Origin: Eubacteriales bacterium
GTDB lineage: Bacteria; Bacillota; Clostridia; Christensenellales; Aristaeellaceae
Assembly (NCBI GenBank): GCA_031549105.1
Contig: JAVBQK010000075.1
Coordinates: 22,503-46,502 of the forward strand
DNA: 24,000 bases
Reading direction: 5' to 3'
In this document: piece by piece, positions 11,979-13,718 of the stretch
Numbering within the stretch: the first letter of the stretch is position 1
Layout: every line of letters starts with the position of its first letter
The notes under the pieces: generated by a model
Seen by the model: the letters and a program-made list of their open reading frames with translations, nothing else
What the model was told of the DNA's origin: nothing
Databases searched by the model: none
Translations under genes and position numbers: made by a program

Positions 11979-12269
11979 TCAGCAGCAATCGCCCCCGGAA
12001 CAATCGCAGCTAGGCTCCGTACCCGTCAGCCATCCCCTGATGATCGCGCTGGCGCAGCCCACGTTCGCATCCACCGTTATGGCGCGCACCGGGCAATTGC
12101 GCGCACACGCCCCGCATTCCATGCAGCGGTTCTTCTCAACAATCTGCGCCTTGCCATCGTTTACGGCAAACACCCGATGCGGACAGACCACTTTGCACAT
12201 GCCACAGCCCACGCATTTCTCCTGGTCCAGGTGGAGCGAGGCAACATCCTTCAAATATGTATGTGTCAT
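11979..12269 (-). CDS. hgcB: HgcB, 2x[4Fe-4S] ferredoxin of the mercury-methylation pair
   Basis: 96 aa starting at ATG 12269 (RBS GGAGG). It has CVGCGMCKVVCP and the HgcB-type CMECGACARNCP motif, and a C-terminal SCDCSGGDCC ending in a vicinal Cys pair. It begins 8 nt after hgcA. The rest of the 270-aa track ORF is an out-of-frame overlap with hgcA. Confidence 0.85.
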   Translation of the reverse strand: MTHTYLKDVASLHLDQEKCVGCGMCKVVCPHRVFAVNDGKAQIVEKNRCMECGACARNCPVRAITVDANVGCASAIIRGWLTGTEPSCDCSGGDCC

Positions 12270-12277
12270 AATGCCTC

Positions 12278-13333
12278 CTACCCAATAAAGCTTTTCACTG
12301 CCAACAGCACGATGCCAACGCCGACCGAAACCGCCATGAACGGGATCGCCGTCTTCATTTCCTTGGTTACGCCGGAAAAAGAAGTATAGGTGGATGAACC
12401 GGTAAAGTTCATCGCCAGATATGCCGATACGGGTGGCAAGGCAAATATGTATCCAGCGGCGAGCATCCATGACTGGGCGGTCAACCAGCCGTTTAGCCAT
12501 ACGGTGCAGAGCGCCCAAACGATGCCCAATAGCCACCCCTTCCAGGCGAATGCCGTGCCGGGAATCCAAGGCAACAGCACGGGTGTCATCACCGCGCCCA
12601 CCACAACGGCTCCGATATAAGCAACAACGTCCGATACGCCAAACGGCCTTGCTACAAACAGGTTCAACAGGAAAAGAACGCCGAACAGCAGCAAAGATTT
12701 CTTTGCGGCGGTTGTGAACTCGATGGGCGTCAGCACCAATCGATCCAATGTGGTGAACTGCACAGTCCGCATTTCCTCCGTTGCCTTGCACCCGGCATCC
12801 AGGTATGCCTTGAAGTCGTGGGCGCGGACAGGGCCATAGGAAACGGAAAAACCGGAGCGTTGCATAACCTCATGTGCGCTGACCCCGACAGCTCCGAGCT
12901 GTGGCAGGATCAACCTGCGATGGGTAACGGCTTTGGATAGCCCGGTTCTTTTGATGCGGTTGACCAGTTCATTCGTTCCAAACGTGCCCTTACCAGCAGC
13001 GCACCACACATTTACGCCTTTCGTATCCAGAATGAGCAGCCAGCAGTTGAGGCCGGTCAACTCTTTCCGAAGGGCATCAAACGTCAGCTTATAGTTGGCG
13101 CTCACCAATACAGGGGATTCGCCGTCTGGGGTGCCCACCGCGTAAAGCCCCGGTTTCACGGTATAGCGCATGCGGCCAATGCCCCAGCGCACTTTCCACC
13201 CTCCAAGCCTATCCTTGAACGTAAGGCGTGTGGAAACCGTTTCAAACTTTGCATCCGATCCGCCTGAACAGCAGCAGCCATCAGAAGAACAACTGCGGGG
13301 CTTTCTTTCGATGCGTATGCCGGTCATCTTCAT
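12278..13333 (-). CDS. hgcA: HgcA, corrinoid protein of the mercury-methylation pair (cap-helix domain + 5 TM helices)
   Basis: Contains GVNVWCAAGKGTFGT, matching the diagnostic N[VI]WCA[AG]GK motif. Flanking conserved blocks are RLTFKDRLGGWKVRWGIGR, YTVKPGLYAVG and PVLVSANYKLTFDALRKEL. Five C-terminal hydrophobic helices. ATG 13333 has GGAGG 8 nt upstream. Confidence 0.9.
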   Translation of the reverse strand: MKMTGIRIERKPRSCSSDGCCCSGGSDAKFETVSTRLTFKDRLGGWKVRWGIGRMRYTVKPGLYAVGTPDGESPVLVSANYKLTFDALRKELTGLNCWLLILDTKGVNVWCAAGKGTFGTNELVNRIKRTGLSKAVTHRRLILPQLGAVGVSAHEVMQRSGFSVSYGPVRAHDFKAYLDAGCKATEEMRTVQFTTLDRLVLTPIEFTTAAKKSLLLFGVLFLLNLFVARPFGVSDVVAYIGAVVVGAVMTPVLLPWIPGTAFAWKGWLLGIVWALCTVWLNGWLTAQSWMLAAGYIFALPPVSAYLAMNFTGSSTYTSFSGVTKEMKTAIPFMAVSVGVGIVLLAVKSFIG

Positions 13334-13644
13334 TCGCAACACCTCCGATCCTCTACTTCCACTACCGAAACGGCGGTGAGCTTTTCCAGCAGTTCAGAGG
13401 CATACGCGCTGCCGCTTTCGCTGATGGAATAGTGCGTCCACTTTCCTTCCTTGCGCAGCGAAACAATGCCGCTTTCACACATGATTTTCATGTGGTGGGA
13501 TAGGGTTGGCTGGGTAATGCTCAACTTTTCCAGCAGCACACAGGCGCACTTTTCACCGCTTTGCAGCATTTCCAGGATGGCCAGACGGTTCTCATCGCAA
13601 AGTGCTTTGAACACCTTGGCGTGGCTGGAATGGCGGTTATCCAC
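13330..13644 (-). CDS. ArsR/SmtB-family metalloregulator, translationally coupled to hgcA
   Basis: FKALCDENRLAILEML..GEKCACVLLEKLSITQPTLSHHMKIMCESGIVSLRKEGKWTHYSI is a winged HTH with a CxC pair at the alpha3 position. The C-terminus is ...RRCCE. GTG start with GAGG 7 nt upstream. Its stop overlaps the hgcA ATG (ATGA). Confidence 0.85.
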   Translation of the reverse strand: MDNRHSSHAKVFKALCDENRLAILEMLQSGEKCACVLLEKLSITQPTLSHHMKIMCESGIVSLRKEGKWTHYSISESGSAYASELLEKLTAVSVVEVEDRRCCE

Positions 13645-13689
13645 TGCATCACCTCATATCGACAATCATCTATTTGTAGGCCCTGCCAT

Positions 13690-13718
13690 AGTATATGCGT
13701 CGCATAGAAAAATGTCAA
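13690..13718 (-). promoter_or_regulatory. Near-consensus promoter of arsR-hgcAB with a palindrome in the spacer
   Basis: Minus strand: TTGACA (13713-13718), 17 nt, TATACT (13690-13695). A perfect 6-1-6 palindrome TATGCG-N-CGCATA (13694-13706) overlaps the -10 box and spacer. Confidence 0.55.

Follow-up and report, generated by a model that had tools for sequence, protein, structure and literature searches.

Can the genes for mercury methylation travel inside a phage? The question is raised by a stretch of 24,000 nucleotides (nt) from an Eubacteriales bacterium (contig JAVBQK010000075.1 of assembly GCA_031549105.1, positions 22,503 to 46,502; the whole stretch is referred to here as the window), in which an arsR-hgcA-hgcB operon lies among phage-type genes. 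The hgcAB pair is distributed patchily over about 30 phyla, in a phylogeny at odds with the species tree, and for these reasons horizontal transfer has been inferred for a decade. To our knowledge, the mobility of hgcAB has never been documented, and how these genes move between lineages is the open question on which the locus bears. The original prediction, made from the sequence alone, was that a complete operon is carried as cargo between phage modules. The comparisons described here support that placement, and we consider it likely that arsR-hgcAB is carried as cargo within one prophage or an element derived from one.

The identity of the genes and their diagnostic motifs are established. 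The hgcA gene (12278..13333, reverse strand) encodes a corrinoid protein of 351 amino acids (aa), which matched the NCBIfam equivalog NF040863 (HgcA_corrinoid) at 485 bits, against a cut-off of 275, over positions 3-325 of the 325-position profile. A check against a curated hidden Markov model (HMM) had been proposed together with the original prediction, and the score is far over the cut-off. The model of the non-methylating "HgcAB-like fusion" gave 209 bits, under its cut-off of 285, and Pfam CdhD matched residues 58-151. The predicted cap helix and five C-terminal transmembrane (TM) helices were both recovered. The cap helix NVWCAAGK occupies residues 108-115, includes the Co-ligating Cys111 and fits the pattern N[VI]WCA[AG]GK; N108 to K115 were invariant across a 27-sequence HgcA alignment. 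The stretch from residue 208 to residue 351 contains five hydrophobic segments, and the AlphaFold2 (AF2) model (27 homologues, mean predicted local distance difference test score 73.8) contains an alpha/beta domain followed by five long helices (195-226, 233-256, 262-280, 289-313 and 319-350). When this model was compared with the PDB by Foldseek, the top match was the HgcAB model 9a0b_A (E 1.6e-21, 41% identity), and the runners-up were corrinoid-binding domains from large subunits of corrinoid iron-sulfur proteins (CFeSP; E about 1e-7). We also observed a Cys-rich N-terminal stretch, CSSDGCCCSGG, at residues 15-23 (about 13265-13291); it is conserved, with CCC...CC as the consensus of 27 relatives, and lies outside the HMM-aligned core.

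The hgcB gene (11979..12269, reverse strand) encodes a 96-aa 2x[4Fe-4S] ferredoxin that matched the equivalog NF040864 at 135 bits (cut-off 99). It carries the CX2CX2CX3C motif twice, at residues 19-29 and 49-59, the latter reading CMECGAC, as well as Cys72 and the C-terminal pair Cys95-Cys96, which agrees with its earlier assignment as an HgcB-type ferredoxin. A CFeSP paralogue or a fusion-type paralogue is ruled out by the model scores, the motifs, the linkage to ArsR and the fold match. That hgcAB is genuine here is, in our judgement, all but certain; the arsR-hgcA-hgcB set is complete and, as far as its sequence tells, functional. The proteins themselves are new members of known families. 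The same two-gene layout, in which the gene of a corrinoid protein with cap helix and five-helix TM domain precedes that of a 2x[4Fe-4S] ferredoxin ending in a Cys pair, occurs in HgcAB of Pseudodesulfovibrio mercurii ND132, which, along with other confirmed methylators, was reportedly described by Parks and co-workers in 2013.

The third gene, arsR (13330..13644, reverse strand), encodes a 104-aa ArsR/SmtB metalloregulator with a GTG start, a CxC motif at Cys33/Cys35 and a C-terminal CC. Pfam HTH_5 (PF01022) matched it at E 2.9e-13 and NCBIfam NF033788 (ArsR/SmtB) at 85 bits, against a cut-off of 55. Its stop codon overlaps the hgcA start in the tetranucleotide ATGA, so that the coupling of an ArsR-family regulator to hgcA stands as predicted. 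The hgcB start follows the hgcA stop after 8 nt and is preceded by GGAGG; together with the ATGA coupling, this spacing suggests a single mRNA. The arrangement was compared with 80 hgcA loci (L001-L080) from GTDB species-representative genomes. There, hgcB was present at 78 of the 80 loci and an ArsR homologue at 52, and at 42 the ArsR gene immediately preceded a co-oriented hgcA. Cys33 and Cys35 were invariant in all 43 sequences of the set formed by the window ArsR and the 42 hgcA-linked ArsRs, and the C-terminal Cys pair was present in 65-74%. Judged by these features, the window ArsR is the usual hgcA-linked regulator. An ArsR-like regulator co-transcribed with hgcAB was reportedly described by Gionfriddo and co-workers in 2023. 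Co-transcription of such a regulator with hgcA was also the finding of Goni-Urriza et al. 2020, as that work is discussed in PMC7438021. The window agrees with the known ArsR-hgcAB units in having the ArsR/SmtB gene directly upstream and co-oriented, with the invariant CxC; unlike them, its arsR is ATGA-coupled to hgcA, and the set forms a putative promoter-to-terminator cassette in what is probably a phage.

Upstream of the cassette genes, a sigma-70-type promoter-like site, TTGACA-17-TATACT (13690..13718, reverse strand), lies 46 nt from arsR. Of the near-consensus promoter claimed in the original prediction, the match itself stood, at 11 of 12 consensus positions and the best in the region, while the number of promoter-like sites in the region, six against 5.0 in shuffles, was not above chance; the site is for that reason consistent with a promoter without proving one. 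Downstream of hgcB, the operon's own terminator was confirmed as an intrinsic hairpin with a U-rich tail (11915..11959, reverse strand; dG -33.5 kcal/mol), with an 18-bp stem and z = -5.0; none of 200 shuffles was equally stable. Rfam recognised no cobalamin or other riboswitch in the window, its sole match being a tRNA.

The position of the operon was read from the gene order on its two sides. Upstream of arsR, on the same strand, lies a gene for a 3008-aa phage polyvalent protein (13806..22832, reverse strand; phrog_22978, E 2e-233), with a weak match to the PBECR3 nuclease and no sequence relative in the PDB. It is preceded by a PG_binding_1 (peptidoglycan-binding) protein gene cut by the window end (22840..24000, reverse strand). 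The giant protein has 36 relatives in IMG/VR (L083-L118), at 30-39% identity, on viral contigs of 21-45 kb, and a homologue of the peptidoglycan-binding protein gene lies just upstream of the giant gene on 34 of the 36. On representatives, the PHROG order is portal, a protein of unknown function, major head protein, internal virion protein, peptidoglycan-binding-protein homologue, giant protein, tail fibre, holin, amidase and large serine integrase; in one relative (L085) the large serine integrase follows the lysis genes. The closest relative of the giant protein among 5.8 billion proteins is 38% identical and lies on a 45.9-kb human-gut contig (L129, ENA), in the order large terminase (TerL), P22/SU10-type portal, capsid, giant protein and four unannotated genes that are not homologous to those of the window. 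Of the two relatives examined in detail (L114 and L129), both have portal and capsid genes upstream of the giant gene and one has the large terminase. Homologues of the giant protein, 2,100-4,500 aa long, carry polyvalent domains (PBECR3/4, ART-PolyVal, LPD3 and helicase modules) that are swappable, and their location downstream of the internal-virion-protein gene suggests a virion protein that is ejected. By sequence comparison, the relatives are temperate, podovirus-like phages.

In these relatives, about 50-80 bp separate the giant gene from the next gene. In three of them (L086, L114, L116) the next gene shares its N-terminal domain with window ORF (open reading frame) 6962-7666, at E 1e-15 to 1e-21, and both that ORF (6962..7666, reverse strand), a protein with a tail-fibre N-terminal domain, and the post-giant genes sharing the domain matched phrog_10972. 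Seven other relatives have a collagen-like fibre gene within about 1-1.5 kb of the giant gene. In the window, 6.1 kb lie between the giant gene (stop 13806) and the gene of the fibre N-domain (start 7666), the first backbone gene downstream of the cargo. This block holds arsR-hgcAB, a Phd/ParE pair, an XRE regulator, a sigma factor, two ORFans (ORFs without family) and an SLOG protein, and none of its genes was found on any related phage contig, neither on the 36 from IMG/VR nor on L129. The genes at both block/backbone junctions are intact and co-oriented. The block thus interrupts a junction whose two sides are adjacent in relatives, which places the operon inside a phage-type gene order and not merely beside one; the claim of cargo between phage modules is upheld in this form. 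The virion and lysis genes of the window follow the phage-typical order of the related contigs. With the phages of gut Firmicutes that encode giant polyvalent proteins, the window shares the succession of peptidoglycan-binding homologue, polyvalent protein, tail fibres and lysis genes; those phages have genomes of about 40-46 kb and polyvalent proteins of 2,500-4,400 aa, with the internal virion protein before the peptidoglycan-binding homologue. The window differs from them in that its giant protein is only 30-39% identical to theirs and in carrying a 6.1-kb block of which they have no gene.

Composition is in line with this placement. GC content at third codon positions (GC3) is 0.71 for hgcB and 0.65 for both hgcA and arsR, compared with 0.58-0.78 for the phage genes and 0.68 for the host gene. 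The tetranucleotide usage of the hgc segment correlates with that of the phage segments at 0.72-0.77, close to the 0.74-0.79 of phage segments with one another; the toxin-antitoxin (TA)/XRE segment is an outlier at 0.51-0.60. This likeness of the hgc segment to the phage segments argues against a chimeric join with DNA of an unrelated organism. A dip in GC at 10-13.5 kb was considered as a sign of foreign hgcAB and discarded, the per-gene GC3 placing it in the XRE and TA genes and in intergenic DNA: the XRE, ParE and Phd genes (10695-11762) have GC3 values of 0.43-0.60, versus 0.58-0.78 for everything else in the window. The values suggest a composite block of which TA/XRE would be the most foreign part, and these three genes look like its most recently acquired members; they also suggest that hgcAB either stems from a donor of similar composition or has a long residence behind it. 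In exact look-ups for the source contig, only HgcB and the ArAE protein of the host flank matched, on two short Logan contigs of run SRR23967709. One (L119), from this independent assembly, reproduces window 9837-12423 at 100% identity and takes in the sigma, XRE, TA and hgcB genes together with the 3' portion of hgcA; the other (L120) spans the host gene to the tRNA and equals window 1-894 at 100%.

How unusual such an operon is was examined in viral and plasmid collections. No HgcA was found in 2.9 million IMG/VR contigs, whether by protein query, by a degenerate DNA pattern of the cap helix or by patterns from the 27-sequence alignment. Two matches to the cap-helix DNA pattern were rejected as chance, because they lay inside a PBSX-type portal-like gene without an HgcA-like ORF. 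By tblastn, HgcA was absent from 50,697 GenBank phage records and from 72,556 PLSDB plasmids; neither HgcA nor the window ArsR matches a PHROG family. In a megablast of the whole window against GenBank phages, the tRNA alone was matched. The 2020 survey PMC7438021, covering about 1,000 hgcA genomes, found no hgcA that was located on a viral contig or close to a known insertion sequence or transposase; the surveyed genes were chromosomal. A full-text literature search, with most subscription journals outside its coverage, returned no later report of hgcAB borne by a phage or other mobile genetic element (MGE). The statement that hgcAB had not been described as prophage or MGE cargo consequently holds for IMG/VR, GenBank phages, PLSDB, PHROGs and the literature searched. 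The hgcAB cassette as phage cargo is a new combination, unprecedented in these collections and papers. Whereas earlier hgcA genes were chromosomal (PMC7438021), the window operon appears embedded in prophage late genes.

Among the 80 other hgcA loci, none has any of the window's flanking genes nearby, and a tblastn search of the 1.2 Mb around these loci with serine recombinases and phage structural proteins gave one distant recombinase match and no other. Two HgcA proteins, 69-71% identical to the window's, are its nearest relatives for which the context is usable, and their genes lie among ordinary chromosomal genes; both seem to derive from the study that produced the window (the JAVB... series), and one is also present in SRR23967707, the run numbered next to that of the window. 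HgcA sequences 60-72% identical to that of the window were observed in metagenome-assembled genomes (MAGs) labelled Clostridia, Synergistaceae, Desulfovibrio, Treponema, Methanomassiliicoccales, Dehalococcoidia and others. This cross-phylum cluster is consistent with recent transfer within gut communities, and the binning of short contigs may inflate it.

Several observations weigh against reading the operon as cargo of one phage. The reference phages resemble the window at family level only (30-39% for the giant protein, 28-35% for the fibre N-domain), which makes a single phage the most economical interpretation but leaves it unproven. The WD40, NlpC/P60 and holin genes of the window have no homologues in the 36 contigs related by the giant protein, and no terminase, portal, capsid, integrase or attachment (att) repeat lies within the 24-kb window, which holds one end of the element. 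The sigma factor and the SLOG protein may be ordinary phage accessory genes, not acquired cargo, and the extra 6 kb may exceed packaging capacity in phages of the size given above. The promoter-like sites, no more numerous than in shuffles, belong to the same side of the balance. The window's allele is present on a single NCBI contig (47,381 bp), probably from a MAG, and neither of the two Logan contigs reaches across a junction between cargo and backbone (13,645-13,805 and 7,667-7,746). The HgcA allele is a singleton among the 5.8 billion clustered proteins, with its next relative 78% identical, and hence there is no sign of the element having spread.

Some of these points would suit a resident chromosomal islet lying between two independent truncated prophage remnants, one ending in the giant gene and the other consisting of the fibre and lysis genes by the tRNA, with MGEs having landed beside hgcAB. 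Such an islet would account for the lack of a visible att site or integrase in the window, for the low similarity of ORF 6962-7666 to the fibre genes that follow the giant gene, and for host-like genes in the block (sigma-DUF4367, ORFans) that have no IMG/VR relatives. It requires, however, two complementary and co-oriented truncations that happen to rebuild the order giant gene, fibre N-domain, collagen fibre, lysis and att, and the hgc operon is alike in composition to both flanks. Since the flanking genes are absent from the 80 other hgcA loci and the neighbourhoods of the nearest relatives differ, there is also no evidence of an ancestral hgcAB locus; no relative was found with arsR-hgcAB at this locus and without phage genes, the arrangement that would have pointed to MGEs beside a resident operon, although none is close enough for a direct comparison. 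We regard the islet as unlikely. Still less probable is an artefact in which metagenome co-assembly fused a phage contig to an unrelated chromosomal fragment bearing hgcAB. The single, probably MAG-derived contig leaves room for it, as does the fragmented single-run Logan assembly, whose contigs end at 894, 9,837 and 12,423 and leave both critical junctions uncovered; yet it would take two misjoins that both happen to restore a single phage gene order on one strand, with all junction genes left intact and with tetranucleotide usage and GC3 of the hgc segment fitting both phage flanks, and two Logan contigs of one run are 100% identical to the window. An integrative conjugative element or other non-viral MGE seems highly improbable. 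Polyvalent-protein domains, PBECR3 among them, reportedly occur in both phages and conjugative elements (Iyer and co-workers, 2017), but each of the 36 IMG/VR contigs with a relative of the giant protein is viral, portal and capsid genes are present in the two relatives examined in detail, and the window itself encodes tail fibres, a holin and peptidoglycan hydrolase but nothing for conjugation.

A different alternative accepts the location and concerns what was selected: the operon could serve another function, e.g. corrinoid-dependent halomethane dehalogenation, with Hg methylation as a side reaction. A 2026 preprint (bioRxiv 10.64898/2026.04.26.720869), which is not peer reviewed, reported CCl4 dechlorination by heterologously expressed HgcAB and argues for halomethanes as the evolutionary HgcAB substrate. 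The phage relatives come from human-gut metagenomes, and many close HgcA relatives are in MAGs whose isolate and contig labels look like those of insect-gut studies; neither setting is obviously rich in Hg. The sequence does not discriminate between substrates, and the ArsR-type regulator with its invariant Cys pair suggests metal(loid) sensing. We treat another selected function as a serious possibility, though not as the expected one.

If arsR-hgcAB is cargo of a single prophage, as we favour, the window would cover that end of a temperate, podovirus-like prophage where the late genes lie, integrated next to tRNA-Arg(CCG) in a Clostridia-type host of high GC. The accessory block (7,747-13,805) would then have entered between the gene of the giant polyvalent virion protein and the tail-fibre genes, neighbours in related phages, and its first unit would be a self-contained moron composed of promoter, arsR, hgcA, hgcB and terminator. 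In the lysogen, the operon would be transcribed from its own sigma-70 promoter as a single mRNA, with ArsR as the repressor; binding of a thiophilic metal(loid) to Cys33-x-Cys35 and the C-terminal Cys pair would lift the repression. HgcA, anchored in the membrane, would hold its corrinoid "Cys-on" through the cap-helix Cys111, take the methyl group from host methyl-tetrahydrofolate and pass it to Hg(II). HgcB, with its 2x[4Fe-4S] clusters, would re-reduce the cobalt and would probably deliver Hg(II) through the Cys pair at its C-terminus. Retention of the block may be aided by the neighbouring Phd/ParE pair. Operon expression, methylation activity and any excision or packaging of the prophage are predictions, and the terminase, portal and capsid genes of the element are expected beyond position 24,000 by analogy with the relatives. 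That the element is an active, intact and inducible temperate phage, which packages arsR-hgcAB and converts lysogens to mercury methylators, we hold to be doubtful.

In its gene arrangement, the cassette resembles phage morons, lysogenic-conversion genes and viral auxiliary metabolic genes: it is an autonomous unit between backbone genes and unrelated to virion production, the gap being 6.1 kb where relatives have about 50-80 bp and the operon being flanked by the promoter-like site and the terminator. Like them, it has a TA pair next to it. The type of cargo is new, unlike that of known morons, and morons more usually occupy att-proximal sites than a place between the gene of a giant virion protein and those of the tail fibres. 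Mobile mercury resistance offers another comparison, since mer operons occur on Tn21, Tn501 and plasmids and their mobility is well established. Both systems combine a mercury-transforming function with a metal-responsive regulator and a mobile carrier, which in our case is the probable prophage. The mer operons act in reduction and demethylation under MerR, whereas the window set would act in methylation under ArsR, and the proteins are unrelated.

Should the prophage reading be correct, the horizontal transfer long inferred for hgcAB would have its first known vehicle in this element, and lysogeny or transduction would be a concrete and testable transfer mechanism. A toxin-making function would join the phage-borne conversion genes, and, if the phage is also intact and inducible, this would be a case of lysogenic conversion to the production of a neurotoxin, methylmercury. 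Methylation capacity would then be mobile in anaerobic communities on ecological time-scales, and the prediction of methylators from taxonomy would become harder. Such a prophage would also provide a natural experiment on the benefit of HgcAB to the host.

The neighbours listed in the original prediction, namely the 3008-aa protein, Phd/ParE, XRE, collagen-like fibre, NlpC/P60, holin and tRNA-Arg(CCG), were all present as described. Downstream of hgcB, the block continues with genes for a Phd/YefM-type antitoxin (11424..11762, reverse strand; PF02604, E 1.1e-8) and a ParE-type toxin (11112..11420, reverse strand; PF05016, E 3.9e-12), which are 3 nt apart and constitute a type II TA pair. A perfect palindrome with a 16-bp stem (11711-11748) overlaps a promoter-like TTGACC-17-TAAAAT site (region 11711-11762, reverse strand) at or inside the TTG start of Phd. 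This palindrome probably serves as operator of the TA pair, and translation of Phd probably begins downstream of the annotated TTG. The XRE/Cro-CI-type helix-turn-helix regulator (10695..11033, forward strand) has a low GC3 of 0.43. Divergent from it is the gene of a 471-aa protein in which domain matches identify an ECF (extracytoplasmic function)-type sigma-70 domain fused to DUF4367 (9100..10515, reverse strand); it may be a phage late regulator or cargo, and it has no relative in IMG/VR. It is followed on the same strand by the two ORFans, of 136 aa (8693..9103) and 111 aa (8239..8574), which match no family, and by the SLOG/YpsA-like protein (7747..8229; phrog_289), the final gene of the inserted block, for which IMG/VR contains a single weak relative and nothing more.

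Beyond the fibre N-domain gene, the backbone continues with a collagen-like (GXY) tail fibre protein (5762..6922, reverse strand), matched by phrog_819 and others. A 594-aa ORF without family match (6008-7792, forward strand) runs antisense to the collagen-like GXY repeat gene and almost certainly reflects the GC-rich triplet repeat without being a gene. Two WD40 beta-propeller proteins follow (2518..5984, reverse strand; gene boundaries approximate). They are made of 138-nt (46-aa) repeats, and the second carries an N6/N4 DNA methyltransferase domain (PF01555, phrog_67) at its C-terminus, an odd fusion for a tail-fibre/receptor-binding region. Relatives of the WD40 propellers were found on four IMG/VR viral contigs, once directly after a collagen-like gene. 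The lysis region (1183..2521, reverse strand) comprises, by domain matches, an NlpC/P60 peptidase, a small ORF and a holin-like protein.

At the outer end lies tRNA-Arg(CCG) (867..943, forward strand), with its own terminator hairpin at 946-984; it is a possible integration landmark and prophage end. No repeat of its 3' part was found within the window. Between this hairpin and the holin gene, the 12-nt motif TGTCGGTCAAAA occurs 4-5 times at 1058-1160, partly as an inverted pair; these repeats could be recombinase arm-type sites or regulator-binding sites at the prophage end. The gene to the left of the tRNA encodes a host membrane protein of the ArAE/FUSC family (140..685, reverse strand). 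Logan contig L120 continues from window position 1 leftwards into a polysaccharide deacetylase gene, and the left side is therefore host chromosome. The end of that contig inside the tRNA, at position 894, was rejected as evidence for an att site, as a branch of the k = 31 graph is expected at a conserved tRNA. The nearest ArAE homologue (77%; L121, GCA_031547595) is situated among housekeeping genes; as an empty-site comparison it was uninformative, having no tRNA and a different neighbourhood. Upstream of ArAE on that contig, at 8118-9641, we observed a large serine recombinase and HTH_Tnp_1, in the spot where the window has tRNA-Arg and the putative prophage. The region upstream of ArAE may be an insertion hot spot.

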